The position numbers and the translations under genes were made by a program. From the NCBI GenBank assembly GCA_963706025.1, contig CAVPLM010000013.1, forward strand, positions 1-59,087: a stretch of DNA of 59,087 nucleotides, written 5' to 3'. This DNA comes from an uncultured Actinomycetes bacterium (GTDB lineage: Bacteria; Actinomycetota; Thermoleophilia; RBG-16-64-13). The notes beneath the pieces are model-generated. The model had not been told where the DNA came from and searched no databases. It worked only from the letters and a program-made list of their open reading frames with translations. Shown one piece after another: positions 14,065 through 30,803 of the stretch; the first letter of the stretch is position 1; the number at the start of each line of letters is the position of its first letter.

Positions 14065-14799
14065 TCAGACTGCAGCGCGGATCATGCTCGAGAGAGTCCC
14101 GCGTATCTTGCCCAGTCGCGCTTCATCTCCCGACCGAGGGTAAGGAAGATCGATGGGCACGTCTGCGACAACGCGTGAGGGCAATCCTCGAAGGAGAAGC
14201 ACCCGCTCGGCCACAGCCAACGCCTCGTCGATACTATGAGTTACTAGCACCATAGTTGTGCTCGTATCCATCCACAGCCGCGACAGCTCAGACTGCATCG
14301 CCTCTCGCAACTGGGTGTCGAGCGCACCGAAAGGCTCGTCCAGTAAGAGTACTCGCGGCCGAGGCGCAAGCGCGCGTGCGAGCGCGGCTCGTTGCGCCAT
14401 TCCACCGGATAGTTGATGTGGATAGAGACCGGCACAGTCGGTGAGCCGAACGAGCTCGAGCAGTTCGTTCACTCGTTCCATTCGCTCGCTTCGCCCCAGC
14501 CTCAGGAGACGCAGCCCGAATTCTACGTTTCTTTGCACAGTGGACCAGGGATACAGGGAGCTTTCTTGGAAGACGAGACCAACTTGGCCAGGCCTGCCCG
14601 TGATATCTTGCGAGTCAAGGGTGACACTTCCGTGGGTCGGCCATTCGAGGCCCGCGAGTATTCTGAGCAAGCAGCTCTTGCCACAGCCGCTCGGTCCCGT
14701 GATGACGGTGAAGCTGCCGGGCTCAACCGTGAAGGTAATGCCATCGAGTACCTGCATTCCTTCGTAGTCATGCGACACGTTGATTACTTCGAGTGCCAC
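14065..14799 (-). CDS. ABC transporter ATPase, NitT/TauT family
   Basis: GPSGCGKS, LSGGM, LLLDEPF, VTHS. Confidence 0.93.
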   Translation of the reverse strand: MALEVINVSHDYEGMQVLDGITFTVEPGSFTVITGPSGCGKSCLLRILAGLEWPTHGSVTLDSQDITGRPGQVGLVFQESSLYPWSTVQRNVEFGLRLLRLGRSERMERVNELLELVRLTDCAGLYPHQLSGGMAQRAALARALAPRPRVLLLDEPFGALDTQLREAMQSELSRLWMDTSTTMVLVTHSIDEALAVAERVLLLRGLPSRVVADVPIDLPYPRSGDEARLGKIRGTLSSMIRAAV

Positions 14800-15584
14800 G
14801 GCGTCAATCGTCGCTCTGCCAGCAGCAGGAGGGAATACATGGCGAGCCCGGCCAGCCCGATTACGACGACGCCGGCGATTATTTGGTCGGCTCGTCCCCC
14901 GATGGAGTACGCATTCCAGATGAAGAATCCAATACCTGCCCTGCCCCCGACGAACTCAGCGGCTATTATCGACATCCAGCCCACTCCAACGCCCACCCGG
15001 ATGCCCCCCATGATAGACGGCAGCGCTGCAGGCAGCGCCACATGAAGCAGCAGATAGCGTGAACTAGCTCCCAGCGTCCGTCCGACCATCGCGTAGGTAG
15101 GCGGTATGTAAGCCACTCCTTGAAGGGTAGCCCCCAATACCGGAAAGAAGACCGCGAGAGAGACGACGAGGAGTTGTACCCAGGCTGTGGCTTGAGACGT
15201 TCCAGAGAATATTAGGTAGGCCAAGGGGAGCCAGGCGAGAGGGGGAATGGGCTGCAGCAAACCCACTAGGGGCTGCAGCATGATGCGTGCACGCACGCTG
15301 CTACCTGCTGCCACGCCTACGAGGACTCCGAGCACCGCGCCGACCGCCGCTCCCCGAATGACTACCCACAGGCTCAACAGCAGCATCTCGAGAAGATTCT
15401 TGCCCAACACGGGGTCCCCAATAAATATGAGAGAAACGAAAGTCCGCACGACGGCAAGCGGGCTAGGGAAGCCTATCAGCCCCAGCCCGCTGGCCAGTTG
15501 CCAGAGAACTGCAATCGCGAGCAACCCCGAGGCCCGCATTGCGAAACGAGCGAATCGTCCTCGAACGTTAGGGCTCATCTGCAA
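14784..15584 (-). CDS. ABC transporter permease, NitT/TauT family
   Basis: PIPPLAWLP, LGAS...ALPAALPSI, IIAAE. Confidence 0.92.
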   Translation of the reverse strand: MQMSPNVRGRFARFAMRASGLLAIAVLWQLASGLGLIGFPSPLAVVRTFVSLIFIGDPVLGKNLLEMLLLSLWVVIRGAAVGAVLGVLVGVAAGSSVRARIMLQPLVGLLQPIPPLAWLPLAYLIFSGTSQATAWVQLLVVSLAVFFPVLGATLQGVAYIPPTYAMVGRTLGASSRYLLLHVALPAALPSIMGGIRVGVGVGWMSIIAAEFVGGRAGIGFFIWNAYSIGGRADQIIAGVVVIGLAGLAMYSLLLLAERRLTPWHSK

Positions 15585-15626
15585 AGAGGGCCTGCCCGGA
15601 GCGGGAACACTGGGTAGGCACGGGAC

Positions 15627-16727
15627 TCACTGCACCCTGCTCGGGATGTGATACTGATCAAGCAGCTCGCGCAGGAGCACGTATTGGACTGTACCGACCT
15701 GAGGGACGGCCACCCGCTTGCCGGCGAGGTCGGCGGGGCTGCTAATACCCGCGCCACACTTCGCAACTACTGCCGAACCCTCCACGTTCACTCCGGCCAC
15801 AACCGAAATAGGAACACTGTCGTTGATCGCTTTCAAGAGCGCGGGTGCGGCCCCGAGGTAAGCAGCATCAATCTCGTTGTTTTGGAAGGCCTGCATAATC
15901 ACGACCCCATTTGTGTACGGCCGCAACTCCAGGTTCTCCCCGGCGATCAAACCGGTTTTCGCAAGAAAGCCTTCCTTCTGCGCGACGTAGAGCGGCAGGT
16001 GATGCAGATCTTTGGAAATATAGCCCACGCGAACACGAGTGCCGATGGGAGGAGCCGGCGGCGTCCAGGATGGATCGGCTGAAAGCTGGGTCTCGACCAG
16101 ACTAAGCGCGCCGGGCGCCAGGAATTGGTTCCAGAAATCCGCTGTGGCCGCCGCCTTCCCGTCGGCGCCTGGCATGCCTATCAGCTCCAACGAGGCTAGA
16201 CGATCTTCGAAAGACTGAAGACCAGAGGCCGGAAGTGAGGCGGAGTATCGGACGTGCAACAGAGCTTCGTCTACTACTTCGGGAGACGCCCCGGTGAATT
16301 CGGAAGCAAGTTCTCGCACACGGGTTTGGGCGGCTGGGTCGTTGAGCACCTGGGTACTGAGGACATGCGCTACGAGCAACGATGGAACCCACCCAGATTG
16401 CCCGGCCTCCGTTCGAATCGCAAGCACACAGCAGGGATGATCTTTCCAGATCTCCGACGACTGCACGAGATAATCCCCAGTACCCTCAGTCACCGCGCTG
16501 GCACCGAAGGGCTCCCAGGAGACGAAAGCGTCTATTTCGCTAGCGCGAAGAGCATCAAGCATCGCGGCGGGTGCCAACTGAACAATGGCAGCCGTGTCCG
16601 CGCTCTGGCGGCAGCCGCTCAGGAAAACGGCACCGACCAGAAGCACGGGAAGGACCAACAAGACCACCAGTCGCCAACCAGCGCGCTTGAGCCACCCACC
16701 CGAACCGATGTTTCCTCTTGTTGTCAT
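15627..16727 (-). CDS. SsuA/NrtA-type substrate-binding lipoprotein, circularly permuted
   Basis: Lipobox LSGC; IDAFVSWEPF and DHPCCV come before VRVGY..HHLPLYVA and DLAGKRVAVP. Confidence 0.85.
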   Translation of the reverse strand: MTTRGNIGSGGWLKRAGWRLVVLLVLPVLLVGAVFLSGCRQSADTAAIVQLAPAAMLDALRASEIDAFVSWEPFGASAVTEGTGDYLVQSSEIWKDHPCCVLAIRTEAGQSGWVPSLLVAHVLSTQVLNDPAAQTRVRELASEFTGASPEVVDEALLHVRYSASLPASGLQSFEDRLASLELIGMPGADGKAAATADFWNQFLAPGALSLVETQLSADPSWTPPAPPIGTRVRVGYISKDLHHLPLYVAQKEGFLAKTGLIAGENLELRPYTNGVVIMQAFQNNEIDAAYLGAAPALLKAINDSVPISVVAGVNVEGSAVVAKCGAGISSPADLAGKRVAVPQVGTVQYVLLRELLDQYHIPSRVQ

Positions 16728-17722
16728 GGCCTCACTCCGGTTATCGGCATTGTAGCTAGGTCCCAGATCACGACCGTTGAGTCGGAGTAACGGACACGGA
16801 GACGGGGTTCCTCAGTTACGCCTCCTATATCGGCCGCAGCCAATCCTGCTGCCTGGAAAGCGGAACAGACATCGTGGACGGCAGACGTCGACACGGCTAG
16901 CACCAGGCCAAATCCCGGGTAGGCAGCCACCCAGGAGCGTAAGTCCACAGACCCAGGACTCGGGAGAACCCCAAGATCGATGTCAGCGCCACATTCAGAT
17001 GTTTCGAGGAGCATCAGCAGAGATCCCAAGACTCCGGGATTGCTTACGTCTTTTCCTGCCCGCACGAGTCCCCGTTCGGCAAGGGTCGGTAGAGCGGCAA
17101 GGTGGCGGGCGATTTCCCGCGGGGAACGGCGGGTCGTCGAATCCCAATGAGGGAACGGCGTCCTCCAATCACCTTCAAGGTCAACCACTGAGCAAATCCG
17201 GTCTCCGGGACGTGCACCAAAACTTGTTACGAGACAAGATGCGGCGCCCAACACACATACGTCAACCGACTGCTGCTCGCTATCCGGGTCGACATGACCG
17301 CCCACCATAGGCACACCGAAGTGACTACTGGCGAACGCCATTCCTGCCAACATCTCACCTCGCAGATCAGCATCCTTTCCTCTAAGCACGTTGACAAGTG
17401 CGAGCGGGCGGCCGCCGGTGGCACAGATGTCGTTCACGTTGGCCAGAACCGCGCAGTAGCCGGCCCACCAGGGATCTGCGAGGAGGTCGCTGCTGATCCC
17501 CTCGGCCGCTAAGAGCAGGTACTCTTCGCCATATGGAATCGGCGCCGCGTCCTCGCCAAGAGTGTGGGGCCAACCTGCTGGACGAGCAACGGTCTTCAGC
17601 GCGCTCGCTGCCTGACCTACCGCCTTCTTGCGAGCGAGGCCGCGCGAGCTCTGGAGGAACCTAGAAATATCTTGGAGCAGATCTGGCCCGGCAAGATGTT
17701 GCTGAATTCCCTGAGACGTCAT
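16724..17722 (-). CDS. AIR-synthase/PurM-family protein (sll0787/NitF-like)
   Basis: LGEDAA, LLAAEG, NVNDICATGGRP, VGGH, GKDVSNPG, YPGFG. Confidence 0.85.
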   Translation of the reverse strand: MTSQGIQQHLAGPDLLQDISRFLQSSRGLARKKAVGQAASALKTVARPAGWPHTLGEDAAPIPYGEEYLLLAAEGISSDLLADPWWAGYCAVLANVNDICATGGRPLALVNVLRGKDADLRGEMLAGMAFASSHFGVPMVGGHVDPDSEQQSVDVCVLGAASCLVTSFGARPGDRICSVVDLEGDWRTPFPHWDSTTRRSPREIARHLAALPTLAERGLVRAGKDVSNPGVLGSLLMLLETSECGADIDLGVLPSPGSVDLRSWVAAYPGFGLVLAVSTSAVHDVCSAFQAAGLAAADIGGVTEEPRLRVRYSDSTVVIWDLATMPITGVRP

Positions 17723-17742
17723 TTCCTATCATCCCACCTACA

Positions 17743-18213
17743 TCAGGCCGCTTCGGGCCCGCCCTGGCCGAACCCATTTGAAGGGTCAAGCTGCGCTTCC
17801 ATCTCTATATGCCGAACGCCGCGGAAGTAGTCCGAATGTCCGGTTGTCCTCCATCCGAGCCGGCGGAAGAAAGCTTCGTTACGTTCCTGCACTTGGGCGC
17901 GGAAGACCAGGGCGCCAACTCGCTTGGCTTCCTCGACGGCACACCGAACGAGTCCAGCACCAATTCCCCGGCGGTGACTCGAAAGCACCGCGAGGCGCCC
18001 CCCGACCCACACTCCCGGCTCGCTTTCATAGAGACGTACGGTGCCCACAACCCGGTTTTCGTCGACGGCGACGAGGTGGACTGCGACCGGGTCCCAATCG
18101 TCCTCGTCGCTGTAGTCAAATAGTTTCTGCTCCTCGCAGAAGACGCTTTGCCTTACTCGAAAGGCTTCCACTAGTTCGTGGTCTTGAGCGCGTCTGATGA
18201 CTGTCTCACCCAC
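17743..18213 (-). CDS. GNAT N-acetyltransferase (MSMEG_0567/Sll0786-like)
   Basis: VFCEEQ.LF..SD.D.WD, VVGTVR, W.GGRLAV, AQVQERNEAFFRRLGW. Confidence 0.85.
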   Translation of the reverse strand: MGETVIRRAQDHELVEAFRVRQSVFCEEQKLFDYSDEDDWDPVAVHLVAVDENRVVGTVRLYESEPGVWVGGRLAVLSSHRRGIGAGLVRCAVEEAKRVGALVFRAQVQERNEAFFRRLGWRTTGHSDYFRGVRHIEMEAQLDPSNGFGQGGPEAA

Positions 18214-19378
18214 CGCAAAGGCCTTCCTCGTAATCGGACAGCGCCGAGCACGCGCGACAGCGGCCGCACCCAGCCATGATCATCCGCCACGACCCGCCGG
18301 CTGACTGCAGGATGCCGGCTGTAGCTCGGTATAACCGATCCATCAACTGTGGAGACGGAGGAGTTGCACGCGCCAATGGGGAGCCAGGGATAGGACGCAG
18401 CGGCACCAGATGTGGGTAGACTCCGAGATCACAGAGCTGTTCGACTCCGTGAAGCAATCGATCGGTTCGTTCTCCCAGCCCGGCGATCAGATAGCTGACA
18501 ACCTGCCAGCGACCAAAAACCTCGACCGCTTGTTTCCAGCATTCGACGTAGGCGTTCCAGCCCAATCTCGCCTTCATCGGCGCAACGAGGGCAAGCGTGT
18601 CGGGGTCACACGTCTCGATGTGAATACCAACAGTGTCAACGCCGGCCTCGTAGAGCTTGACCAGCGAATCGGCGTGACCAGGCATACATTGAACTTGCAC
18701 GGGGAGATCCACGGCAGCCTTGATCGCGCCCGTGCAAGCGGCCAGGTGGTCAATCTCGTCTTCGCCGGTGACCGAAGAGCCCGTGGTCAGCGTTACGTGA
18801 CGGATTCCCCCCAATGCGGCGACTGCCGCAACCTCTGCAAGAGCCGATGGTGATTTTCTCCGAACTGTTGTCCCATCCCGGAGACTTGTTCCAATGGCGC
18901 AGAAGCGGCATGCGGACTGTGTTCCCCAGTAGACGCAATCTTGGATGACTGTGGAAGCTAGGCAATCATTCCCGTGTAGCCGAGCGATCTTCACGAAGGG
19001 CACGCCCTCCGAAGTTAGGGCTGCGTAGTAGCTCGGCGCGTTGACCACACCGGCTATTTCGCACACATCCTCCGGCGTTCGGTCGTCCGAAAGCAAGAAC
19101 CGATCACCATCATGGTTGAGGATGAAGGGCGAACGTTGTGAAAGGGGGTGTACGGTCGAAACGGCCACCGGGCCGCTATCAAGCAAGAGGGTTATCCCCT
19201 CGGCCGGCCCCGCTCCCCCGCGGCGGCGGGGTATCGCGGCTACAGCCTGGCTGTCTCCAAGCTTCACCCCTAGTGTCTGAAGCTCGACCTTCAGAAAGGT
19301 GCCGGCTGGTGCCCGACTCGGCTTTCGTTCAATGGCCCTGGTCTTCACGCCGCAATTCCTCGGTTTGTCGGCAATCAC
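18206..19378 (-). CDS. Radical SAM protein (MSMEG_0568/NitD-like)
   Basis: LHGNDCLASTV, Cx8Cx2C (CVYWGTQSACRFC), TLTTG, GIHIE, C-terminal AGCGRCRACS. Confidence 0.88.
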   Translation of the reverse strand: MIADKPRNCGVKTRAIERKPSRAPAGTFLKVELQTLGVKLGDSQAVAAIPRRRGGAGPAEGITLLLDSGPVAVSTVHPLSQRSPFILNHDGDRFLLSDDRTPEDVCEIAGVVNAPSYYAALTSEGVPFVKIARLHGNDCLASTVIQDCVYWGTQSACRFCAIGTSLRDGTTVRRKSPSALAEVAAVAALGGIRHVTLTTGSSVTGEDEIDHLAACTGAIKAAVDLPVQVQCMPGHADSLVKLYEAGVDTVGIHIETCDPDTLALVAPMKARLGWNAYVECWKQAVEVFGRWQVVSYLIAGLGERTDRLLHGVEQLCDLGVYPHLVPLRPIPGSPLARATPPSPQLMDRLYRATAGILQSAGGSWRMIMAGCGRCRACSALSDYEEGLCGG

Positions 19379-19384: not shown

Positions 19385-20662
19385 TCAATGAGCGAACAGA
19401 GAGCTGCTAATGTGAAGCGACGCGACCGGTTCACGACGAGAGCAGGCCCGTCGCGAATGCTCAAATCGCAGGGAAGCGAAATAGTGGTTGAGGAACCGCG
19501 TGGTTACAGTCCGAAGACGAGGGAAAAGCTCTTCGGCAAGCTCTAACGTGTCCTTGCGCATGCGAAGATCTCTGCCAAGCTGCCGTACAAGCTCAGTGAC
19601 GGCCGTAAGCTCGGAGACAAGCGAAGTCAATGCTCCTGCGTCCGCGAAACGGGAAAAGCGTTCGGCATTCCTTAGCCTTCTCCACATGGCGTCGCAGAAC
19701 ACGTTGATCTTTGCCGGCTCGTATGCCTTCCGCCCAATCCACCACACCGTATCCGCAGACTCAACCGAGAGGCTGGCTATGCGCAAATCTCCAAGAATCC
19801 CTCGTAGGTGCCAGAGCGCGTCGCTGGGAATTGCTCCAAGGTAAGGTAGAGCGGGAGCTAAGGAACGCCGGCGAAGTGACTGCGAGAGCAAACGGGCTAG
19901 AGCCCGGTTTGCTTCCGGGTAGCGCGGGTTTTCCAAATGCGGCCCAAAGAGAAAGGCCTCGCCGCCGCCAATGAGGCGTGAGCACGCCGCAACCTTCCCT
20001 AGAAGCAGCTCGGCAGCTAGGTGTTTGTCTACCAGGAAGAGGGTCTCCGGGACAAACGCGCGGTAGCGGCCGAGAATGCGGTCTTCGCCCTCGGTCTCGA
20101 TGGGAGGCCCTCCGTAAAGAGGTGCCTCGATGCATATGGAAGACTGGCCTGCGACCGGCGCCCAATCCAACAACACGCCTTCGCGAACCGGGTGCACAAC
20201 ATACTTGTCCGCATAGCGAGTCGCCGCCTTGCTGGCAAGCGCCTTGATAGGAGGCAGATCGGGAAGGATATTGGCCGGCCGCGCGGCCGTTAACCGGAAT
20301 CGTTCCATTGAGGGCTCTTCGTTCATGTCCAGGGCCAGGTAGCAACCGGCACAAAAACCGAGGTAAATGCCGCCTTCACGTATGAAACGGTGGAACTCGC
20401 TCGCACCTGTTCGCCCCAGTGCCTCCGCCATTGCTATCGGATCTCCGCCTCCGATCGCGACTGCGTCGAACTGGTTGAGACATGTGTTGTGTACATCCTC
20501 TTCGTCGAAGAAGAAGAGACCGCTGTATCCCTCACGTTCCAGGGAGTCAGCCAGCCACGTCCAAGAGTGCGAGGCACCCTTTCCCGCGTAGATGCCGACT
20601 GCAGTTTTCTCGGTTGCCGCTAAGGGCCCGTCGCGAGCCGCGCTTGTCGCTGCCCTCTCCAT
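19385..20662 (-). CDS. BPL-N-like class I glutamine-amidotransferase-fold protein with C-terminal helical extension
   Basis: IYAGKGASHSW, GGGD, YLGFCAGCY nucleophile elbow, GPHLE. Confidence 0.75.
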   Translation of the reverse strand: MERAATSAARDGPLAATEKTAVGIYAGKGASHSWTWLADSLEREGYSGLFFFDEEDVHNTCLNQFDAVAIGGGDPIAMAEALGRTGASEFHRFIREGGIYLGFCAGCYLALDMNEEPSMERFRLTAARPANILPDLPPIKALASKAATRYADKYVVHPVREGVLLDWAPVAGQSSICIEAPLYGGPPIETEGEDRILGRYRAFVPETLFLVDKHLAAELLLGKVAACSRLIGGGEAFLFGPHLENPRYPEANRALARLLSQSLRRRSLAPALPYLGAIPSDALWHLRGILGDLRIASLSVESADTVWWIGRKAYEPAKINVFCDAMWRRLRNAERFSRFADAGALTSLVSELTAVTELVRQLGRDLRMRKDTLELAEELFPRLRTVTTRFLNHYFASLRFEHSRRACSRREPVASLHISSSLFAH

Positions 20663-21948
20663 TATGTCTCTTCCGAGTTCGCTTCCATCACGGCAGTGGG
20701 TGCATCCGCAGGCTGCGCCCCAACAGCGGCCGCTACGAGCTCGGTCAGATCCATCATCTGGAGAGAACTCCCACGAGCGGCTATCCCCAGCTGCAGACCC
20801 TGGTAACAGAAGGGGCAGGACGAAACGATGGTGTCCGCGCCGGTTGATTCGGCTTCCTCAATACGAGTCTCTGAGATGGCTGCCTGCACCTGGGGGAAAC
20901 CTGCCTTGAGCCCGCCCCCTGCCCCACAGCAGCGGGAATCCTCTCGCGAACGCTCCATCTCGCGCAGCTCAAGTCCGGGAATCCGCGAAATGACCTGCCT
21001 CGGCGCGTCGTACACACCGCTGTGGCGGCCGAGGTGGCAGGGGTCATGATAGGTGACAGTACGCGGCACTTCGTTTCGCAGTATCAACCGATCCTGTTTG
21101 AGGAGACGCACCAGGTATTCGGATACATGCAGGACCTCAAAGTTGAGGGGAGATATCTTGGGATAGTCCTGGCCAATCGTCTTGAAGCAGCCCGCGCACG
21201 AGGTGACCAAGCTCTGAATCCCAAGCCCGTTCAAGTACTCAATGTTTCTGGCTGCCCGCTCAGCGAATTGTTGACGAAGACCGACTCTGAGCATCACGCT
21301 CCCGCAGCAGGGCTCATCGCGGCCTAGAAAGCCGAAGTCAACCTCAGCTGCTTGAAGCACTTTTGCTGTGCTGACCGCCATCTGCTTGAGATTCATATCG
21401 AAAGATGCCGTGCAGCCAACGAAGAACAGCACCTCCGCCCCCTCCGGCCCTATTACCGGTACGGGCGCGATCTCGGCCAACTTGCCCTTGGCCGCCCGGG
21501 TCGCCCAACGATCGCGGCTGCTCTTTGGCTGCTGCCATGGGTTTTCGTTGTCCTCGATACTTTGGGCAAGCACGCGATGCGGGGGCAAAGGCCCGAGGCC
21601 CGATTCGACAGCCACCGCCCGTAGGGCTTCCCATAGGGCTGCGGTGTCGATGTTGATAGGACATGCCTGCTGACACTGCCCGCAAACGGAGCACTCGTAC
21701 AAGTCCAGGATTGCCTGTTCGACTTCGGCTTTGCCGAGAGCCTTGCCGGCAAACATCCGCTGGAGCCGGTTACCATCCTGCCTCATCAGCCTCTTGAAGA
21801 CGTGGGCCTTGCTCCGGGGCAAGACACCTTCGCGCTGATCCTTTTCGAACACTGGGCACCAGAGCTGACACTCGCCGCATCGGGCGCACGCGTCCAGCTC
21901 CATGGCTTGTCTCCACGTGAGGAGCGACCAATCGAGATCAGGCTTCAT
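20662..21948 (-). CDS. HdrD/GlpC-like Fe-S oxidoreductase (2 ferredoxin motifs plus 2 CCG domains)
   Basis: CARCGECQLWCP, CSVCGQCQQACP, EPCCG, YHDPCHLGR, CCGAGG; ATGA overlap with upstream gene. Confidence 0.9.
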   Translation of the reverse strand: MKPDLDWSLLTWRQAMELDACARCGECQLWCPVFEKDQREGVLPRSKAHVFKRLMRQDGNRLQRMFAGKALGKAEVEQAILDLYECSVCGQCQQACPINIDTAALWEALRAVAVESGLGPLPPHRVLAQSIEDNENPWQQPKSSRDRWATRAAKGKLAEIAPVPVIGPEGAEVLFFVGCTASFDMNLKQMAVSTAKVLQAAEVDFGFLGRDEPCCGSVMLRVGLRQQFAERAARNIEYLNGLGIQSLVTSCAGCFKTIGQDYPKISPLNFEVLHVSEYLVRLLKQDRLILRNEVPRTVTYHDPCHLGRHSGVYDAPRQVISRIPGLELREMERSREDSRCCGAGGGLKAGFPQVQAAISETRIEEAESTGADTIVSSCPFCYQGLQLGIAARGSSLQMMDLTELVAAAVGAQPADAPTAVMEANSEET

Positions 21949-22730: not shown

Positions 22731-22738
22731 GGCCGACG

Positions 22739-24019: not shown

Positions 24020-24355
24020 CTACCGGCTGATGGCGCCTGTTGGGCACGCCTGTTCGCATGGGGCAGGGTCACATTTGTCACAGCTTGGGCGTAACAGAAT
24101 CGGCTTCCCGCCAGCCATCACTGGCCCGGAGCTATCCCCAGGCTTACGCACGAATACACCTTCCGGGCGAACTCCAACCATCTCGTTGTCCGTCTTGTAG
24201 AGCAGTCCGAAGTAGTTCTTCTTTTCCTCACCGCGGTACAGCATCACGCTGGCCGACGTAACCGTATAACCCTCGTCGCGGTAGTTCCCGCAGGCAACCT
24301 CACATCGGCCACAGCCGATGCAGGATAGAGGATCGAACTTCAGGTGGAGCTCCAT
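24020..24355 (-). CDS. Small 4Fe-4S protein
   Basis: CIGCGRCEVAC and CDKCDPAPCEQACP. Confidence 0.85.
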   Translation of the reverse strand: MELHLKFDPLSCIGCGRCEVACGNYRDEGYTVTSASVMLYRGEEKKNYFGLLYKTDNEMVGVRPEGVFVRKPGDSSGPVMAGGKPILLRPSCDKCDPAPCEQACPTGAISR

Positions 24356-24394: not shown

Positions 24395-25501
24395 CTAGGG
24401 GCAGCACAGCCGTTCGATTATCTGCAGCGCAATCTCGTACGTTCGATCGGAAGCATCGAGAGTCGGCCAGCCAGCTCGCCGGACATCGATCTCCATGAGA
24501 TCCAGGCCTACTAGGCGTCTTCGTCCACCCCTTGCATACCGGCCAACCTCTTCAACGACCTGGAGCAGGCGGTCCCGCGGCAGCCCTTCCCTCTCACAGA
24601 AACGGACGCCGTTCAAGGCACGACGGGCACCGACATCCAGATCGACTGAGACGTACACATAGGGGGCGTCTATGGCGTTAAGAGCCCGCGAGGCAGCAGA
24701 TTCGTCAGCCATAAGGCTTTGCTGGGTCGCTATCGTAACCCCCTGTCGCTTCAGAGCCGCATAGGCTTCCACGTATCGCCGCACTCGCCTATCGTGGATA
24801 CGGAAGGCATGCCTGGGAGGGTAGTCGGCAACTCCAAGCAAACAGAGGTTGCGCGCGCAGATAACGCCGTCTCGAAGCAAATGCGCCAGAAACGAACTGG
24901 CGTTATAGGAGTCGCTGCGTCCGACCAGAAACGGATCCCTCGCATCGAAGCAAGACTGGGCGTTGGTCTCCAGGTCGTATTCGATGGCACCGATCGCTGT
25001 TGGAGCGGGTATCGCATCGGAGTGCGCGTCGAGCACTATGACCGCTAGCTGGTCACGACCGAACTGGTGCGCGAGCGCTTGGATGACTCCGCCGCTCAGA
25101 GCGTGATCTACTCCGATCAGACAAGGTACATCCGGGAGTATGTGGGTCGTTACGAACTGCTCAAGCGCGTTCGCGCAGCGGCGAAGGTCGCCCGATTCAG
25201 TGAAATCGACAAAGTTCGCCGTGTGCATGTACTCGCGATCTTCCTGAACGGGAACCGGGCGGAGCCAGGAGGGAACCTCCATGGACCCTGCCCGCTTCCA
25301 CTTCGCAGCCCAAGGAATACCGTCAAGTAATTGCGTGACGACCGCGTACGGGTCGTCAGGCAAATCACTTCCAATTCGGCTTCTCTTATCGCGCACCGCG
25401 CTATCTCGCTCGTCGCTATCTAGCGGACAGCCCAGAAACACCAGGTTGGCCGACGGCAACTCAGAAGGAGTGCAACTCATCGCTTCGCTGGTCGTGTTCA
25501 C
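24395..25501 (-). CDS. Ureohydrolase (arginase/agmatinase superfamily)
   Basis: GVDHALS, LDAHSD, SVDLDV, GLDLME. Confidence 0.8.
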   Translation of the reverse strand: MNTTSEAMSCTPSELPSANLVFLGCPLDSDERDSAVRDKRSRIGSDLPDDPYAVVTQLLDGIPWAAKWKRAGSMEVPSWLRPVPVQEDREYMHTANFVDFTESGDLRRCANALEQFVTTHILPDVPCLIGVDHALSGGVIQALAHQFGRDQLAVIVLDAHSDAIPAPTAIGAIEYDLETNAQSCFDARDPFLVGRSDSYNASSFLAHLLRDGVICARNLCLLGVADYPPRHAFRIHDRRVRRYVEAYAALKRQGVTIATQQSLMADESAASRALNAIDAPYVYVSVDLDVGARRALNGVRFCEREGLPRDRLLQVVEEVGRYARGGRRRLVGLDLMEIDVRRAGWPTLDASDRTYEIALQIIERLCCP

Positions 25502-25533
25502 TGAGAATCCAATGCCCAGTCCATAGGTAGCAT

Positions 25534-26859
25534 TTACGACACTGGGGGCAGTGCTTCATCAATCAGTTGAGTGATATCGAGTACGGGCATCTGGCTTCCA
25601 ATATGAGCCGCACCCTCGGTTAGATTGACGAAGCAGAAAGGACAGATGGAAATGAGCTGGTCAGCACCAGTCTCCATGGCCTCTTCGACACGAAGGCTTG
25701 CATTTTTCGTAGCCCAGTCCTTGTAACCTGTCATCACTCCTCCACCGCCGCCGCAGCAGAAGGAGTTTTCGCGCACCCGCTCCATCTCTCGGAACTGCAG
25801 ACCGGGAATTGCGTGGAGCAAATCACGGGGTTGCTCATATACGCACTCAGATTGGTCCTCACCAAGGTATGCGCCCGGGTACTGCTCAGTGCCTTCCACG
25901 TCAATGCGGTACTCCGTCAGGTGGCGACCCGTATGACACGGATCGTGGTACGTGACGGTACGGTTGACTTCGATGCTGAGCGGCAACTCGCCTTTCTTGA
26001 ACATGTCGTACAGAAGATCGGCGGTGTGGATGATGCTTATGCCGGACAGAGCCTCTTCATACTCGTCGGCCAGACGGTAGTCCTTCGTCAGGGCCCGGTA
26101 GCAACCCGCACAAGAGGTGACAATCGTATTGACGCCCTGTTCCTCATGCAGCTGCTTGAAAACAGCCATGTTCCTCTCGGCAAGTGTCCGGAACTCCGCT
26201 ACTTCACCAAGCCGCATAGCGGTCGATCCACAGCACAGTTCCTGCTCTCCGAGAATGCCAAAGTCGAGACCCAGCTTCTGGAAGATGGAGGCGGTCGCGA
26301 CGGGGATTACCCGGACCGACGCGTTGTAGGCTGCTGTGCAGCCAACCCAAAACAGAACGCTTGCGGGTTGTTTCGTGATGTCCTTGATGGGTCGCCCTGC
26401 CTTCTTGAACGGACGAGTCCAGTCTGTCCGTGCTCGGCGCGGTCCCTGATAAGGATTGTCATAGGTCCCCAGTGACTGGGTCACGACTTTCTGAGAGGGC
26501 ATGGGACCAGCGCCCGCGGCGACCGCGTCACGGCGGATGGCCTCTATGATGTCGGGGATGAAGGGCTTGTGATCCAGCTGGCACTGAGCCTGACAACCCC
26601 CGCAGACCGTGCATTTGTACACTGCATCAACCAGTTCGTCGTCCCATTCAAGCTGTCCATCCAGAATCCCGCGCGCGTACGCGATCTTGCCCTTCGAAGC
26701 GAGATAGCCCTCGAACCCATACTCGACGCCTGCGGGGCAAATGGTATTGGACCACGGTGGCGGACCGTACTCGTACGCGCTCTTACACGTTCCGCAGGCC
26801 GTGCAGCGCCAGATCTTCTTTTCTAGATCCTTGAGCGTGGCGACATCCCAGTGCATCAT
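25534..26859 (-). CDS. GlcF/HdrD-like Fe-S oxidoreductase subunit
   Basis: CTACGTC...CP, CTVCGGCQAQC, ELCCG, YHDPCH, CCGGGG. Confidence 0.9.
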   Translation of the reverse strand: MMHWDVATLKDLEKKIWRCTACGTCKSAYEYGPPPWSNTICPAGVEYGFEGYLASKGKIAYARGILDGQLEWDDELVDAVYKCTVCGGCQAQCQLDHKPFIPDIIEAIRRDAVAAGAGPMPSQKVVTQSLGTYDNPYQGPRRARTDWTRPFKKAGRPIKDITKQPASVLFWVGCTAAYNASVRVIPVATASIFQKLGLDFGILGEQELCCGSTAMRLGEVAEFRTLAERNMAVFKQLHEEQGVNTIVTSCAGCYRALTKDYRLADEYEEALSGISIIHTADLLYDMFKKGELPLSIEVNRTVTYHDPCHTGRHLTEYRIDVEGTEQYPGAYLGEDQSECVYEQPRDLLHAIPGLQFREMERVRENSFCCGGGGGVMTGYKDWATKNASLRVEEAMETGADQLISICPFCFVNLTEGAAHIGSQMPVLDITQLIDEALPPVS

Positions 26860-26902
26860 ATCCTCCTCCGAAAGCCGACTGTTGACTTGGAACCCGGCTC
26901 GT

Positions 26903-28342
26903 TCAGATCCCCAACTTCCCAGGATTCATGATGTCGTTAGGATCGAGGAACCGCTTCACTCGAGTGAGCAGATCGAGATAGCCGGGGTCGACCCGTTTGT
27001 TGATCTCGACGGCGAAATCGACAGACGGCTTGTAGGGTATGCCCCCGTGATCGAGGTCGACCTTGAGGCATTCCACGATGGCGTGGCGAGCGTTTTCGGT
27101 TGCTGCCGCGCTCTGCTTGTCGAAGGGAACCATGGCCCGAAGCATGCCGTAGTGCACGCCGCGGTACATGCTCATCCTGACCGCCGGAGAGATGTCGTGT
27201 TCCGTGAGGATCCGCTTCCAATCCTTGTACACGGCCGGCCACTTCTTGGCTGGAGTGAACGTCCCGGGCCAAGAGATGCCGCCGCCGCCCTGCTTGCTAT
27301 AGTTCTTGGTAGAGCCGACGATCTGACTCGGGAGCTCAGTCCGTGCCTTCAGCGCCTCCTCGGGGTATTGGGTTACCTTCAGCGAGGAGCCCTTCGCCTG
27401 CTCCTCAGCCACGACCTCCTCCCAGATCTCCTGACGAGCCTCTTCTTCCTTCTTGGTGAACGAGTTCGTGTTCGCGAAACAAAACCACTCGGCAGCGCTC
27501 TGAGGCATGGGTTTGAACGGGCTTGGGATAGGAACCTGAGCAAGCCACCAGGAGACTGCGGTCAGGTCGTCGCATATCTCGTAATTGCTTAGATTGAGCA
27601 TATACGAGTACATATCCTCGACCGTCGCTGCCGAGACCGTGAAAGTCCTCTGCAGCGGCGGCAGAGGATGAACGTTGATGCCCAGCTTAGTGACAACTCC
27701 GCTCGAGCCAAGCCACCCCTTGAATAGGCCATCCAATTGAGGAAGCGGCAGAACGCTGTGCCAGGCGTCCTCTTGAACTGCGCACGACCCTACGCGGACC
27801 AGCTCGCCGGTAGGCAGGACCACCTCCATGCTGGTGATTTCCTGGCTCTGCAGCCCGTATCGAGCACTGAGTCCTCCGATCCCGTGTGACACGCAGCAGG
27901 CGACGACAGAGGAAGATGGCGGACCAACCGGCCACCCGAACCGCAGTTTGTGCGGGTAGAGGGCGGACGCCAACTGGCCGTGCGAGACGCCAGGCTCGAT
28001 CACCGCATAGTGAGCTTCAACGTCGAGGGTGAGGATGCGGTTCATCCTCTTGAGATCGAGGATAATGCCTCCCCGCTCGGGGATGCACAGTCCCCCGATG
28101 TTGGTACCGGAGGTGTACGGTACCACTGGGATAAGTTCCCGGTTTGCGAAGCGCAGGACATCTTGTATTTGTCCGACCTCGGTCGCAAGGACGACATAAT
28201 CGGGCATTTTGGGCTGCACGAAAGACATGTCGTAGGAATACGCATAGCGAACATGCTTGGCTGCCGTTGCATTCTGCTCGCCCACAATGGACTTGAGCTC
28301 GGCAAGTACTCGGGCTTCCCGTTTGGCAGGTGTGTCGCTCAC
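26903..28342 (-). CDS. FAD-linked oxidoreductase, GlcD/D-lactate dehydrogenase family
   Basis: P..SGTN.GG, LDLKRMNRI, EPGV, EVVLPTGE, LDPNDIMNPGK; GTG start after a purine-rich RBS. Confidence 0.9.
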   Translation of the reverse strand: MSDTPAKREARVLAELKSIVGEQNATAAKHVRYAYSYDMSFVQPKMPDYVVLATEVGQIQDVLRFANRELIPVVPYTSGTNIGGLCIPERGGIILDLKRMNRILTLDVEAHYAVIEPGVSHGQLASALYPHKLRFGWPVGPPSSSVVACCVSHGIGGLSARYGLQSQEITSMEVVLPTGELVRVGSCAVQEDAWHSVLPLPQLDGLFKGWLGSSGVVTKLGINVHPLPPLQRTFTVSAATVEDMYSYMLNLSNYEICDDLTAVSWWLAQVPIPSPFKPMPQSAAEWFCFANTNSFTKKEEEARQEIWEEVVAEEQAKGSSLKVTQYPEEALKARTELPSQIVGSTKNYSKQGGGGISWPGTFTPAKKWPAVYKDWKRILTEHDISPAVRMSMYRGVHYGMLRAMVPFDKQSAAATENARHAIVECLKVDLDHGGIPYKPSVDFAVEINKRVDPGYLDLLTRVKRFLDPNDIMNPGKLGI

Positions 28343-28428
28343 GGCTCTCGTTTCCCTCCCCTTCGCTGTTCCCTCTGCTGGTCGCGTCTTTTCTTCTGCC
28401 GTCTGCACGGATTGGCGACGACACGACA

Positions 28429-28516
28429 AAGATAGCGGGGAGAGATACCGAATTCGACGTCAGAAAGCGACCAAATCAGCGCCGTATATCGTCTGTTTGC
28501 GGCTAGGAAAGGACAA
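28429..28516 (-). promoter_or_regulatory. Activator-dependent promoter, copy 1 of shared motif
   Basis: Minus strand GTCCTTTC..AAACAGACGATAT..CTTTCTGAC-N24-TATCTT; same layout at 32.2 and 35.8 kb. Confidence 0.6.
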
Positions 28517-28532
28517 AAGGCCAGGTTGGCTG

Positions 28533-30803
28533 CTAGCTGCGCGGACCGGCACTCCTCATCAATTGCTCGGTCGCAAGGATCCGGGTGGCGAGATGGAGCT
28601 CAAACCGAGTATCGTCGTCGGAGAGATCGACTTCGAGAATCTCTTCGGCGCGACTCAGCCTGTACTTGAGAGTGCTCAGGTGAATGTGGAGCCGGCGCGT
28701 CGTCTCGACCTTGTTCCCACTACAGTCAAGGTAGCAGGTGAGGGTAGGAACGAGAGCGCTTCTCGACCGACGGTCATGATGGATCAGACCGCCGAGCCGC
28801 TTCTGTACGAAGGAGTCTAGGCGGGTGCTGTCGCCCTCACCCAGCAACCCTAAGACCCCGAACTGCCCGTACTCGACGAAGGCCCCGGGCAGGTCCAAAT
28901 CGCGGTGCATAGAGAGAGCTATCTGGGCTTCACGATAGCTATCCTTGATGTCCGCCAGCGTAGCGACAAAAGTGCCCATGCCCACTACCAGCCGCTGGCC
29001 ACGCATCTGCTTCTGAAGTTCGGTCGCAAGCAGGCGTCCAAACCGCGCGCCTGAACTCTCAAAGTTATCGCCGTCTGCAGTGACCACGCACAGTACCTGG
29101 CGGCCCTTGGCGGCCACTATTGCATGTAGCCGCTGTGACTCGGCGATCGACTCAATCGTGCGCCAGATATTGCGACGAGCGACAATTGTGTCGTGCCCCT
29201 CGACCTGGTTCTCGACTTCCGGGTCCTTCATCTCGGCCACAACGGCAACCGCCGGGCTGGTCGCGTCATGTCCGAGATAGCCGGCACGACGTAGTGCGGA
29301 TTTGACTGTTTGCTCGTTCTCATCGAGAAGATCGTCGAGTAGTTCCCCTCTGAGCCGTTGCTCCATCTCAGCCTCGACCCGGAGACGCATCATACGGAGA
29401 GCGATGATAACCCCGGCACGCTCGGCAATCCGGAGTGCGACGGAATCCACGTTCCTGTCAAGCTGAATAACATGAACATAGCCAAGTACCTCGTTCCCCG
29501 AGACCACTGGAGCGACGGCCCGAGCAAGCGCGAGATCCGCGCCTGAAGACTGCTGAAGGATAACCCCGTGACGAGAACCAGTTCCCTCCTGTTCCTTCTC
29601 GGCTTGCTGGTTCAGCAAATCGAATGGTACCGCGGCCTCGTAGACGCCGGGAGCGGCCGGCTGAGGAGGATGACAGGCCAGGAGATTGAGACGGGAGTCA
29701 TAGATGGCGGTGGGATTGCCAACGAGGCGGCTTAGAGCCTCGGCAATCATTTGGAAGTCTCCGTCTCTCAGAACGATGGCGGTCAGTCGGTCGTCCACTT
29801 CGATCGCTTGGCGCTCCCGCTCGTACAACTCTGAGTTTGCAATGGCTATCGCTGCCTGATCCGCCATACCTTGGAGAAGCCTCGCATCGCGCTCCGTGAA
29901 TCTGTCCGGACGACGGTCAGCCGCGTAGATAACTCCTGTCACATCCTTGCCAAATATCATTGGCACTGCGACCACGGCTTTGACGCCCTCGCCGTTCACC
30001 ATGTCTTGGACCTGCTGGCTGGTGACGTGAGGATAGGCGGAGTAGTCGGGGATGATGAGCGGTTCTCGGGATGCGGCAACGGTACCGCCGATCCCCTCGC
30101 CAAATCGCATCCGCATGACGTTCCGCCAGGATGCGCTGACGCCGTGAGTCATGACCACCGTTAGTTCCTGCTGCCGTTTGTCGGCCAAACCGACGTACGA
30201 GATGTCCACATCAAGAAGTTGCGCGGACTTTCGACAGATCAGATTGAGCACGCGGTCGGGACTACCAAGGGCCGATATTTCCTTGCCGATCTCGTGGAGA
30301 GCCCGGATCTCTGCCTCCCGTGCCGCGGCTGCCGCCATCGCAAGGTCCGTTGCTACCGCTGTCTCCATCGCCTTTGCCACCGTCGTTAGCACGAGATCAT
30401 CGACAGTGGGAAGGCCAACGGAAGCGGTGCTTCCTAACAGTAATAGCCCCTCAAAGTCGTTCTCTTGGAAAAGACGAGCCGTGTACGAACGAAGCCCGCA
30501 AGCGTCGGCCCAATTGGCAGCAAGCGCGGGGTCGCAGTCAATGGAAGAACCACGGCTCGCAGTTATCTGACGCGTCTGGGCGCAGCGCTCATCCAGCTTA
30601 CGCAGACAGTCTTCACTGATTCCCCAGGCGGCGGCGAGAAGGCATTGCCCGGGTCGAAGCATCGGACGCACCCCCGCGCGAGAGCAGAGTACAAGCGCTG
30701 CTGCTTCCTGCCCGGTAACCTTCGCAGCCCATTCCGTGAGAGACGCCAGGTGATTATCGGTGTTCAGATGATCCCCCAGTTCGTCCATCCACCTCTGCCT
30801 CAA
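28533..30803 (-). CDS. GAF-domain PucR/CdaR-family transcriptional activator
   Basis: GAF (GEGIGG.VA, AVPM, ADQAAIAI), degenerate GGDEF-like region, C-terminal TL.CYL..SGN..T..RLHIH.STLKYRL helix-turn-helix. Confidence 0.88.
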   Translation of the reverse strand: MRQRWMDELGDHLNTDNHLASLTEWAAKVTGQEAAALVLCSRAGVRPMLRPGQCLLAAAWGISEDCLRKLDERCAQTRQITASRGSSIDCDPALAANWADACGLRSYTARLFQENDFEGLLLLGSTASVGLPTVDDLVLTTVAKAMETAVATDLAMAAAAAREAEIRALHEIGKEISALGSPDRVLNLICRKSAQLLDVDISYVGLADKRQQELTVVMTHGVSASWRNVMRMRFGEGIGGTVAASREPLIIPDYSAYPHVTSQQVQDMVNGEGVKAVVAVPMIFGKDVTGVIYAADRRPDRFTERDARLLQGMADQAAIAIANSELYERERQAIEVDDRLTAIVLRDGDFQMIAEALSRLVGNPTAIYDSRLNLLACHPPQPAAPGVYEAAVPFDLLNQQAEKEQEGTGSRHGVILQQSSGADLALARAVAPVVSGNEVLGYVHVIQLDRNVDSVALRIAERAGVIIALRMMRLRVEAEMEQRLRGELLDDLLDENEQTVKSALRRAGYLGHDATSPAVAVVAEMKDPEVENQVEGHDTIVARRNIWRTIESIAESQRLHAIVAAKGRQVLCVVTADGDNFESSGARFGRLLATELQKQMRGQRLVVGMGTFVATLADIKDSYREAQIALSMHRDLDLPGAFVEYGQFGVLGLLGEGDSTRLDSFVQKRLGGLIHHDRRSRSALVPTLTCYLDCSGNKVETTRRLHIHLSTLKYRLSRAEEILEVDLSDDDTRFELHLATRILATEQLMRSAGPRS

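Follow-up and report, generated by a model that had tools for sequence, protein, structure and literature searches.

A fourteen-gene operon of an uncultured actinobacterium, evidently a conserved, nitrilase-less and anaerobic relative of the Nit1C cluster

Organization of the locus

The window studied here is a whole contig of 59,087 bases from an uncultured bacterium of the Thermoleophilia (Actinomycetota), and belongs to a 3.66-Mb bin (genome G000) that is 92.3% complete and 7.3% contaminated. In it, fourteen minus-strand open reading frames (ORFs) form one chain from 14065 to 28429, with a regulator gene before the chain and mmsA after it. No two neighbouring genes of the 14 are separated by more than about 55 nt, and in several cases they overlap, by 1-16 nt. 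An initial annotation of this DNA had proposed a tightly packed 14-gene minus-strand operon beside a GAF-PucR gene, and the ORF chain bears this out; the 14-gene span is one real operon. Within it lie genes for a radical SAM enzyme, a GNAT acyltransferase and a PurM-fold protein, the trio otherwise found in the Nit1C cluster. The region is a conserved, nitrilase-less and evidently anaerobic relative of Nit1C in sediment bacteria.

Nit1C genes are named nitBCDEFGH in Pseudomonas, sll0783-0787 in Synechocystis and gpr (MSMEG_0565-0572) in M. smegmatis. According to the excerpted text of PMC1199592, Nit1C was defined in 2005 as seven genes with chemistry not known, in which the trio stands beside a nitrilase. 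PMC11049912 is the source of the nit gene names and of the link to cyanide; an excerpt of it states that Nit1C matters for cyanide assimilation in Pseudomonas. Excerpts of PMC6039565 and PMC4617892 describe the mycobacterial gpr cluster as induced by GlnR, strongly under nitrogen starvation, and the former reports that in M. smegmatis the cluster changes both peroxide resistance and the ratio of NADPH to NADP. In a full-text literature search, judged from abstract openings, no paper appeared on the biochemistry of NitD, NitE or NitF or on a nitrilase-less anaerobic variant, nor was a characterized pathway with the architecture of this operon found there.

The radical SAM, GNAT and PurM-fold trio

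Families were called from NCBIfam/TIGRFAM scores of the window proteins against each model's own cut-off, plus Pfam. The radical SAM gene (18206..19378, minus strand) encodes an MSMEG_0568-family enzyme (NitD) with 332.9 bits on TIGR04043 (cut-off 303.7), which also passes NF045502 variant_rSAM (153.7 vs 125) and Pfam Radical_SAM (43.4 vs 29.5). The gene is single copy in G000, and its product found no PDB sequence relative at E <= 0.01. The canonical radical SAM cluster motif is CX3CX2C, which this protein does not carry; its motif reads CVYWGTQSACRFC, a Cx8Cx2C pattern instead, and its C-terminal end reads CGRCRAC, a CxxCxxC pattern. The cysteines of both motifs are invariant across four aligned orthologues of the variant.

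The GNAT gene (17743..18213, minus strand) encodes an MSMEG_0567/Sll0786-family acyltransferase (NitE; TIGR04045 136.4 bits, cut-off 68.45). The PurM-fold gene (16724..17722, minus strand) encodes an AIR-synthase-like protein of the sll0787 family (NitF), with AIRS and AIRS_C domains and 328.5 bits on TIGR04049 (cut-off 321.3); on the methanogenesis marker 2 model methan_mark_2 it scores 286.2, under the cut-off of 365. PurM-fold enzymes use ATP to activate carbonyl or amide oxygens. In 22 aligned sequences of the PurM-like protein, D58, N97 D98, G103 G104 P106, H143, D181 and D225 are invariant, and both PurL and HypE are among its PDB sequence matches. The adjacent minus-strand trio of Nit1C type recognized in the initial annotation is thus confirmed, since all three proteins pass their NCBIfam cut-offs, the PurM-like one narrowly.

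The likeness to Nit1C lies in the adjacency and same order of the three genes, in the same NCBIfam families, and in a C-N hydrolase and a flavoprotein beside the trio together with a nutrient-type regulator. The differences are as follows: the hydrolase of the window has a ureohydrolase fold, its flavoprotein is of VAO/GlcD type with CCG iron-sulfur partners, and NarI/HdrD-like, aldehyde:ferredoxin-oxidoreductase (AOR)-like, amidotransferase-like and importer genes are added.

Absence of the other Nit1C members

No sll0784-type nitrilase (NitC) is encoded in the window, and the best TIGR04048 score in the 92.3%-complete G000 is 255.7 of the 502.6 bits required. That score and the next best belong to two CN-hydrolase genes in tandem on contig C3, in an unrelated context of RidA-like and phosphoketolase genes. 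Three further genomes with related loci were searched, namely G006 (same family, other genus), G425 (locus L024, a Desulfobacterales bin) and G631 (locus L097). In these three, one of them 100% complete, there was no nitrilase match above 39 bits. NitB (TIGR04042, the MSMEG_0570 family) gave no match in G000, G006, G425 or G631. The small MSMEG_0572-family protein, which we take to be NitG, gave no match in G000 (TIGR04044). For NitH, the MSMEG_0569-family flavoprotein (TIGR04046), the best score in G000 is 340.9 of 498.35 bits, below the cut-off, and the neighbours of this match on contig C18, a hypothetical gene and one for an alpha/beta hydrolase, make an unrelated context. The genome-wide profile search of G000 therefore places none of these families over its cut-off, as would be expected of the relative of Nit1C lacking nitrilase, NitB, NitG and NitH that had been proposed.

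Conservation and modularity

A contig scan with the single radical SAM protein gave only L024, so that the survey rests on genome samples and a metagenome scan. The samples comprised 41 relatives, 401 genomes of the window's phylum and 401 genomes of the Thermodesulfobacteriota, the phylum of L024. The metagenome scan used an alignment of four radical SAM proteins as query and returned 60 loci, many only 1-5 kb long, whose ORFs were clustered together with those of the window to count gene families.

The radical SAM protein exceeds its cut-off in only 3 of the 41 related genomes. In G006 the genes follow in window order, from the regulator through flavoprotein, CCG protein, arginase-like protein, Fer4 protein, AFOR_N protein, NarI-like, HdrD-like and BPL_N proteins to radical SAM, GNAT and PurM-like proteins, with 41-78% identity between shared genes. 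After the PurM-like gene, G006 carries genes for a thiamine-diphosphate enzyme, a D-2-hydroxyacid dehydrogenase and a PotABC-like transporter instead of the NitT/TauT importer. L024 shows the order GntR/FCD regulator, flavoprotein, MmsA-type aldehyde dehydrogenase (ALDH), 143-aa protein, CCG protein, 461-aa membrane protein, arginase-like protein, radical SAM-GNAT fusion, PurM-like protein, permease and ATPase. The 461-aa membrane protein was considered as a relative of the window's BPL_N or binding protein and rejected, being related to neither. In L097 the order is GntR, flavoprotein, CCG protein, membrane protein, URO-D/MtaA-type gene, arginase-like protein, MmsA-type ALDH, ferritin-like protein, radical SAM-GNAT fusion and PurM-like protein; divergent Fer4 and AFOR_N genes are also present.

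Among the 60 metagenome loci, the radical SAM/GNAT family was recovered in 56 and accompanied by a PurM-like gene in 28. A permease and an ATPase occur in 15, of which 13 also have an NMT1_2 binding protein. The arginase-like gene is found in nine (five with a URO-D-type gene, four with an ALDH) and BPL_N in seven (five with NarI-like and CCG genes), while the combination of flavoprotein, CCG and arginase-like genes was seen in two, L147 and L148. Only one locus (L125) has a CN hydrolase, and none has a NitH-like flavoprotein. The arrangement is thus not a chance juxtaposition, its order being kept in G006 and its subsets recurring in the metagenome loci. Conservation of the gene set in other genomes, whose lack would have counted against the initial annotation, was found in G006, as a core set in two Thermodesulfobacteriota genomes, and as subsets in metagenomes. 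From the recurring subsets in genomes and metagenome loci it follows that the operon combines four modules as a mosaic: T (the trio), A (the importer), H (BPL_N, NarI-like and HdrD-like proteins) and U (flavoprotein, CCG, arginase-like protein and MmsA). One indivisible 14-gene pathway, as first envisaged, gives way to separable modules, given that module U lacks the trio in six of eight Thermodesulfobacteriota genomes and that arginase-like and BPL_N genes meet in none of the 60 loci.

A single protein of about 505-520 aa unites the radical SAM and GNAT domains in L024 (9977-11518), in L097 (5558-7117) and in 26 of the 60 metagenome loci, which includes most loci of Thermodesulfobacteriota type, and a GNAT-PurM fusion exists in MSMEG_0567, as the name of TIGR04050 states. 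The former fusion is a Rosetta-stone hint of joint action. Each context also gives the trio a C-N hydrolase of a different kind as neighbour (nitrilase, Amidohydro_2, ureohydrolase-like or amidotransferase-like). The three proteins probably work together on a small molecule.

Several further partners were noticed in the survey. A gene of about 200 aa stands directly upstream of the radical SAM-GNAT gene in eight of the 60 loci, including L126 (9387-9989; FMN_red according to Pfam), and in L097 an FMN_red-type gene (3766-4368) is the opposite-strand neighbour of the PurM-like gene; no homologue of it was seen in the window operon. The FMN_red-type protein may supply electrons to the radical SAM cluster. 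In some importer/HdrD-type loci the BPL_N gene is preceded either by a Peptidase_U32 gene (L128, 2814-3851; near-identical in L137) or by an FAD_binding_3 oxidoreductase gene (L121, 2387-3745; also L134). U32 proteins are oxygen-independent hydroxylases, and the one here could stand in for the flavin monooxygenase of the aerobic Nit1C. The most distant metagenome subgroup (L158, L159, L161, L164 and relatives) has a longer PurM-like gene, a radical SAM gene and then a fusion of CoA_binding_2 and thioredoxin.

Fourteen DNA sequencing runs share sampled words of the window, each at no more than 0.37, and are coded as sediment, freshwater-sediment and freshwater metagenomes, with one coded as another organism; no RNA run was among the runs sharing window words.

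The flavoprotein, ureohydrolase-fold enzyme and MmsA of module U

The first gene of the operon (26903..28429, minus strand) encodes a flavoprotein of the VAO/PCMH/GlcD superfamily (FAD_binding_4 104 bits, FAD-oxidase_C 43.5 bits), whose best PDB sequence matches are of cresol dehydrogenase, D-lactate dehydrogenase and eugenol oxidase types and which is 78% identical in G006 and 68% in L024. Its partner (25534..26859, minus strand) contains two CCG domains and a 4Fe-4S dicluster (CCG 92.7, Fer4_8 29 bits), reaches 169 of the 385 bits required for TfrB, and is 64-65% identical in G006 and L024. This pairing of an FAD_binding_4 flavoprotein with a CCG and dicluster protein resembles GlcDEF glycolate oxidase and the D-lactate dehydrogenase-CCG systems, but the equivalog cut-offs are missed (glcD 100 of 567.9, GlcF 37 of 333).

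The next gene (24395..25501, minus strand) encodes a deep-branching metallohydrolase of the ureohydrolase (arginase) fold, with 70.1 bits on Pfam Arginase. The binuclear-metal ligands of arginases follow the pattern His, DxHxD and DxD. In 21 sequences, D132 H133, D158 H160 D162, D287 D289 and E337 are invariant, so that all six metal ligands (H133, D158/H160/D162 and D287/D289) and the conserved Glu (E337) are kept, in alignment with the motifs of formimidoylglutamase 3m1r. An AlphaFold2 (AF2) model with a predicted local distance difference test score (pLDDT) of 91.7 matched formimidoylglutamase, proclavaminate amidinohydrolase, arginase, agmatinase, guanidinopropionase and metformin hydrolase in Foldseek. 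Fold, ligands and Glu are those of the superfamily; the differences are an identity of 13-19% and a template-modelling (TM) score of 0.5-0.6 to every solved member, and about 60 additional residues. No subfamily of known substrate was reached among hutG (38.7 of 229 bits), agmatinase (33.3 of 174) and arginase (32.6 of 228). The intact metal site would fit an amidine- or guanidine-type substrate. The family comprises 117 sequence clusters at 31-54% identity and two close relatives at 85-89%, and its named organisms are Desulfomonilaceae, Desulfatirhabdiaceae, Desulfobacula, Desulfarculaceae and Thermoleophilia; most members with a named source are from Thermodesulfobacteriota and Thermoleophilia, and the protein constitutes a sharply delimited family within the ureohydrolase superfamily.

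The arginase-like gene occurs in 19 of the 401 sampled Thermodesulfobacteriota genomes. Flavoprotein/CCG pairs adjoin it in eight, five at 62-74% identity to the window pair and three at 23-32%, and module U is separable from the trio because it is found without it in six of these eight. In Thermodesulfobacteriota loci such as L094, L099, L100, L102, L103, L104 and L107, one or two URO-D/MtaA-type genes often adjoin the arginase-like gene, several with Liv-type ABC genes, and L094, L099 and L100 also have a 1150-aa fusion of a RACo-type corrinoid activator with a pyridine-nucleotide oxidoreductase (Pfam checked on L094). Loci of this arginase-like and URO-D/RACo kind possibly serve to demethylate, in a corrinoid-dependent way, amidine or guanidine compounds that bear a methyl group. 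In L148 the URO-D-type gene is over the MtaA/CmuA cut-offs, with 240.4 vs 235.4 bits on TIGR01463 and 282.6 vs 244 on PRK06252.

The mmsA gene (12175..13773, minus strand) encodes a CoA-acylating (methyl)malonate-semialdehyde dehydrogenase with 535.5 bits on TIGR01722 (cut-off 448.5). The cluster ALDHs of L148, L133, L097 and L024 score 546, 539, 546 and 468 bits on the same model. Since all five of the cluster-linked ALDHs that were tested exceed the TIGR01722 cut-off, an acylating dehydrogenase of (methyl)malonate-semialdehyde type is a constant of module U, and mmsA, first taken as a mere follower of the operon, is a conserved cluster member whose family lies inside the cluster elsewhere.

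Redox proteins, amidotransferase-like protein and importer

A small ferredoxin-like protein of 2x[4Fe-4S] type (24020..24355, minus strand; Fer4_7 34.7 bits, with related models) has homologues at 60-70% identity in G006 and at 38% next to the L097 cluster. Beside it is encoded a short AOR-like protein (22739..24010, minus strand) with AFOR_N (136.8 bits) and no AFOR_C, which falls in clusters of short AOR-like proteins of about 424 aa, commonest in Thermodesulfobacteriota, and has homologues at 49% in G006 and 38% in L097. On contig C5 of G000 (1157745-1162759, L072), genes of AFOR_N-only, FAD_binding_4 and CCG type again lie together, as a second set that has diverged to 24-32% identity to that of the window. 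Short AOR-like proteins would thus seem to be regular companions of flavoprotein/CCG pairs.

Module H begins with a NarI/QmoC-like membrane subunit of cytochrome-b type (21945..22889, minus strand; Nitrate_red_gam 26.8, qmoC 41.4 bits), whose likely start is near 22685, since it is 55% identical to a 250-aa G006 orthologue from residue 70 on. An HdrD/TfrB-like CCG iron-sulfur protein follows (20662..21948, minus strand; CCG 121.4, Fer4_8 38.4, TfrB 229.3 of 385 bits). According to the G006 alignment it starts at Met67 of its ORF (21948, MKPDLDW), with an ATGA overlap with the NarI-like stop; a conserved overlap of about 170-200 nt between the two genes was considered and rejected, because the first 66 residues of the HdrD-like ORF are not conserved. 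The CCG domains and the NarI-like subunit translationally coupled to the HdrD-like protein recall HdrD, DsrMK and HmeCD-type modules, from which the pair differs in missing the equivalog cut-offs (TfrB 229 of 385, QmoC 41.4 of 300, DsrK 82.5 of 400).

The third member of module H (19385..20662, minus strand; BPL_N 36.1 bits) is a class-I glutamine-amidotransferase-like protein with a C-terminal helical domain. Its Cys-His-Glu triad (C104, H242, E244) is invariant in every aligned sequence, and its AF2 model (pLDDT 84.4) has the class-I amidotransferase fold with the extra helical domain. Foldseek gave Pdx2, PurQ of PurLQS, the GATase of GMP synthase and TrpG as best matches, with probability 1.00 to Pdx2, PurQ and TrpG at 9-16% identity; no PDB sequence relative was better than E 0.039. 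By triad and modeled fold the protein qualifies as a class-I glutamine amidotransferase, with putative glutaminase activity. PurLQS combines a PurM-fold enzyme with a class-I amidotransferase; here a PurM-fold and a triad-bearing amidotransferase-like protein are encoded two genes apart, with PurQ among the best structural matches of the one and PurL among the sequence matches of the other. The homology does not go past fold level, and BPL_N accompanies the trio in only seven of the 60 metagenome loci. A complex prediction for the PurM-like and BPL_N proteins gave a score of 0.00 without controls, which counts neither for nor against binding.

Module A is an ATP-binding cassette (ABC) importer at the downstream end of the operon. 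It comprises a lipoprotein substrate-binding protein of NitT/TauT type (NMT1/SsuA-like; 15627..16727, minus strand), a permease (14784..15584, minus strand; BPD_transp_1 61.2 bits, ntrB/SaoP/TauC-like under cut-offs) and an ATPase (14065..14799, minus strand; ABC_tran 117.4 bits, SaoA/TauB-like under cut-offs). The binding protein has an LSGC lipobox-like signal at its N-terminus and matches the two halves of the family model in swapped order: its residues 40-205 correspond to residues 149-307 of the L126 protein, and its residues 229-366 to residues 21-156. By this alignment it is a natural circular permutation of the clusters' usual NMT1_2 protein, with putative ligand binding. The other gene labels of the initial annotation hold at the level of fold and stop there: labels such as GlcD/GlcF-like and HdrD-like are fold-level only, because operon genes outside the trio reach no equivalog cut-off.

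Other contexts of the trio

Of the 401 genomes sampled from the window's phylum, 26 encode a radical SAM relative at E <= 1e-60, 17 of them over the cut-off. Contexts were fetched for 20 of the 26, plus G030 (L025), and of these 21, four are canonical-like, seven form what is called type B here, and ten have the radical SAM gene alone. In the four canonical-like loci the trio is colinear with an MSMEG_0569-like flavoprotein, two having weak CN-hydrolase matches. In type B, Amidohydro_2 stands directly upstream of the radical SAM gene in all seven, an AllG-type oxamate carbamoyltransferase subunit is present in six and carbamate kinase in five, the PurM-like gene is convergent, and the genomes have 68-77% GC. 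Type B thus resembles the window in having the trio without nitrilase and another C-N hydrolase beside the radical SAM gene, but its Amidohydro_2, AllG-type and carbamate kinase partners are its own, being found neither in the window nor in any of the 60 metagenome loci. ComA is present in all seven type-B genomes, within 15 kb of the trio in three, and in none of the four genomes with the anaerobic variant.

Phylogeny and horizontal origin

In a tree of 25 radical SAM proteins, the canonical-type proteins (Shimodaira-Hasegawa-like approximate likelihood-ratio test, SH-aLRT, 100) and the type-B proteins (94) of the window's phylum form one clade (94). The window-type proteins branch outside this clade, a further difference from Nit1C, as a pair of window and G006 (97) and a pair of L024 and L097 (91). 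The outer group (99) is a related family without GNAT and PurM neighbours. Such a sister family occurs in ten genomes of the window's phylum (L050-L059), without GNAT or PurM-like neighbours and with 266-312 bits on TIGR04043, mostly just below the cut-off.

When 49 metagenome rows were added to the tree, all arginase-linked rows fell in one 17-row clade (93), nested in a 31-row clade (99) that also has importer/FMN_red-type loci. The window and G006 lay outside it, close to a BPL_N-type locus in a part of the tree without resolution. When the two were constrained to join the arginase-linked rows, the log-likelihood fell by 16.3 units, and the approximately unbiased (AU) test does not reject this placement (p 0.234). 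Two separate unions of modules T and U are therefore suggested, not shown, because the AU test leaves a single origin unrejected.

The block 14065-30803 has a GC content of 0.596 vs 0.641 for the genome (standard deviation 0.015 in 14-kb windows), and 1% of windows are as low. At third codon positions (GC3), the block genes have 0.60-0.72, an AOR gene at 33412-35166 has 0.86, and other window genes have 0.46-0.84. A non-coding remnant of 44 codons (13845..13976, minus strand) resembles the C-terminal end of an ABC ATPase, with 48% identity to residues 192-235 of the L024 ATPase (tblastn, E 2e-8), and is probably a rearrangement scar at the left edge of the low-GC block. The low GC and GC3, this remnant and the mainly Thermodesulfobacteriota distribution of several of the families together indicate that the operon was probably acquired by horizontal transfer.

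Proposed function and alternative explanations

From the gene identities, the conserved catalytic residues and the conservation and modularity of the set, we infer the reactions, their order, the direction of electron flow and the substrate. A model is favored, with modest confidence, in which the operon is a ligand-induced catabolic or nitrogen-scavenging pathway built from a horizontally acquired mosaic of modules. It is based on the importer, the ligand-sensing regulators (GAF-PucR here; GntR/FCD in L024, L097, L147 and L148), the hydrolase of non-peptide C-N bonds and the acylating semialdehyde dehydrogenase. In this model, a small organic nitrogen compound would be imported, and the ureohydrolase-like enzyme would cleave its amidine- or guanidine-type C-N bond. 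The flavoprotein/CCG pair might then carry out a two-electron oxidation of the carbon skeleton to a (methyl)malonate-semialdehyde-like aldehyde, from which MmsA would form an acyl-CoA. The small Fe-S and AOR-like proteins would relay the electrons to NarI/HdrD and the quinone pool, this direction being itself presumed. The trio and the amidotransferase-like protein may perform an ATP- and radical-dependent conversion of the same compound or its product, a step that would be coupled to the nitrilase in Nit1C. The N-rich substrate, the electron flow to the membrane and the trio as a cofactor builder, all put forward in the initial annotation, are retained as proposals of this kind.

Several observations weigh against this pathway, or against parts of it. 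The incompleteness and contamination of the bin leave the absence of nitB, nitC, nitG and nitH short of proof, and the PurM-like protein passes TIGR04049 by only 7 bits. The structure of the arginase-like protein does not reveal its substrate, because it is about equally far from every solved ureohydrolase. The arginase-like gene lies beside URO-D/MtaA-type methyltransferase genes in nine loci, which fall outside a simple pathway. As for mmsA, its GC3 of 0.94 is native codon usage as against 0.60-0.72 in the operon genes, and a promoter-like site precedes it at 14004-13976, found by a scan that gave more sites in shuffled sequences; mmsA may have its own promoter. A 91% identical copy is on contig C5 of G000 (1112503-1114035), which may be a true paralogue or a co-binned strain, in view of the 7.3% contamination and exact duplicate matches on C21/C3 and C24/C2/C6. 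Finally, among the eight Thermodesulfobacteriota genomes with flavoprotein, CCG and arginase-like genes together, only two have the trio, and the arrangement of the window and G006 is a rare composite, because arginase-like and BPL_N genes co-occur in none of the 60 loci.

The last two points are those expected of a mosaic with no common pathway, in which module U is a degradation route and the importer, trio, amidotransferase and NarI/HdrD genes are a separate unit that shares its transcript in this lineage; on the best radical SAM tree, too, the window and G006 lie outside the 17-row clade of all arginase-linked rows. Yet the trio directly adjoins arginase-like or MmsA genes in L024, L097 and nine metagenome loci, as in the window and G006, and between operon genes there is either translational coupling or a gap of no more than about 55 nt. 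An independent second union of T and U, if real, would argue for a functional link, although the AU test (p 0.234) does not reject a single origin. The unlinked mosaic is regarded as rather unlikely, though it is the likeliest of the alternatives.

A smaller chance is given to the trio being a maturation or cofactor-building system, which would make or repair a small thiol or redox cofactor, or modify a protein, for the neighboring redox enzymes. HypE is a PurM-fold enzyme of hydrogenase maturation, and its presence among the PDB matches of the PurM-like protein accords with such a role, as does the additional C-terminal CxxCxxC cluster site of the radical SAM protein. The partners of the trio belong to unrelated hydrolase folds (nitrilase, Amidohydro_2, ureohydrolase), CCG proteins are of thiol/disulfide type, and one subgroup has the CoA-binding and thioredoxin fusion. 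The shift of NADPH/NADP ratio and peroxide resistance caused by the M. smegmatis cluster, as given in the PMC6039565 excerpt, points the same way. Against it, the commonest partner is a binding-protein-dependent importer (permease and ATPase in 15 of 60 loci), which fits the consumption of an external compound; a gene for a candidate target protein or precursor peptide was not seen, and partners vary by context, which would be odd for a dedicated maturase.

A doubtful third possibility concerns the substrate, namely that the trio with its changing partners handles a short sulfonate or sulfonate-thiol of the coenzyme M or taurine kind and not nitriles, the anaerobic variant importing, for example, a guanidino- or amino-sulfonate. 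The ureohydrolase-like enzyme, flavoprotein and acylating ALDH would then process the compound, HdrD/NarI would reduce the resulting disulfide, and type B would make the thiol itself. MtaA/CmuA are methylcobamide:CoM methyltransferases, and in L148 a gene of this family separates those for the CCG and arginase-like proteins; the gene family is also present in L097 and five further metagenome loci. A further lead is ComA, found in all seven type-B genomes and in none of the four with the anaerobic variant. The importer belongs to the taurine/sulfonate/nitrate family, and the CCG proteins are of HdrD/TfrB kind. An acylating ALDH-family enzyme acts on sulfoacetaldehyde, according to the excerpt of PMC10413351. 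The best Xsc score in G000 was 325.5 of 676.4 bits, under the cut-off, which lends no support to C2-sulfonate cleavage, and a literature search for taurocyamine amidinohydrolase in bacteria found nothing.

It is highly improbable that the cluster makes a secondary metabolite or an osmolyte and uses its ABC system for export or re-uptake. Radical SAM, GNAT, ATP-dependent PurM-fold and amidotransferase-like enzymes are indeed typical of biosynthesis. Against it, the lipoprotein binding protein marks an importer, degradation is what PucR and GntR/FCD regulators and an acylating semialdehyde dehydrogenase typically accompany, and family scans of the window operon showed no scaffold-forming enzyme.

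The catabolic or scavenging pathway bears on a question which, to judge from the excerpted PMC1199592, dates from 2005, that is, the role of the radical SAM/GNAT/PurM-fold trio, on which the variant offers a new natural handle. The nitrilase is swapped for unrelated C-N hydrolases, of ureohydrolase fold here and Amidohydro_2 elsewhere, and the oxygen-dependent flavoprotein is replaced by anaerobic Fe-S and quinone-linked partners with a dedicated importer; both narrow the possible chemistry of the trio. The variants also provide experimental entry points in a ligand-screenable binding protein and an assayable metallohydrolase, and the 117 clusters of the arginase-like protein define, in sulfate-reducing and actinobacterial sediment organisms, a ureohydrolase family to which no substrate is assigned.

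Regulator and flanking genes

Directly upstream of the operon, a transcriptional regulator (28533..30803, minus strand) combines GAF (77.1 bits), GGDEF-like (GGDEF_2, 66.6) and PucR helix-turn-helix (HTH_30, 72.5) domains, and has an orthologue of 50% identity at the equivalent position in G006. The intergenic region between regulator and operon (28430..28532, minus strand) is the probable promoter/operator by position. A consensus scan found no sigma-70-like site in 28430-28532 and a weak terminator-like hairpin at 28537-28520; the number of sites in this promoter/terminator scan was below that in shuffled sequences.

Upstream of the regulator (30800-32731, minus strand) lie four small genes, for a 153-aa and a 156-aa protein (neither with family matches), a DUF1326 protein and a CMD/AhpD-like protein, which have the lower GC3 of the operon yet no counterpart beside the G006 cluster. 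On the other flank, an ACR3 arsenite-efflux ORF (9807-10742, minus strand) scores 243.1 bits vs a cut-off of 282.8; its first 188 residues cover only positions 61-244 of the 327-position model, and it may be truncated or diverged.

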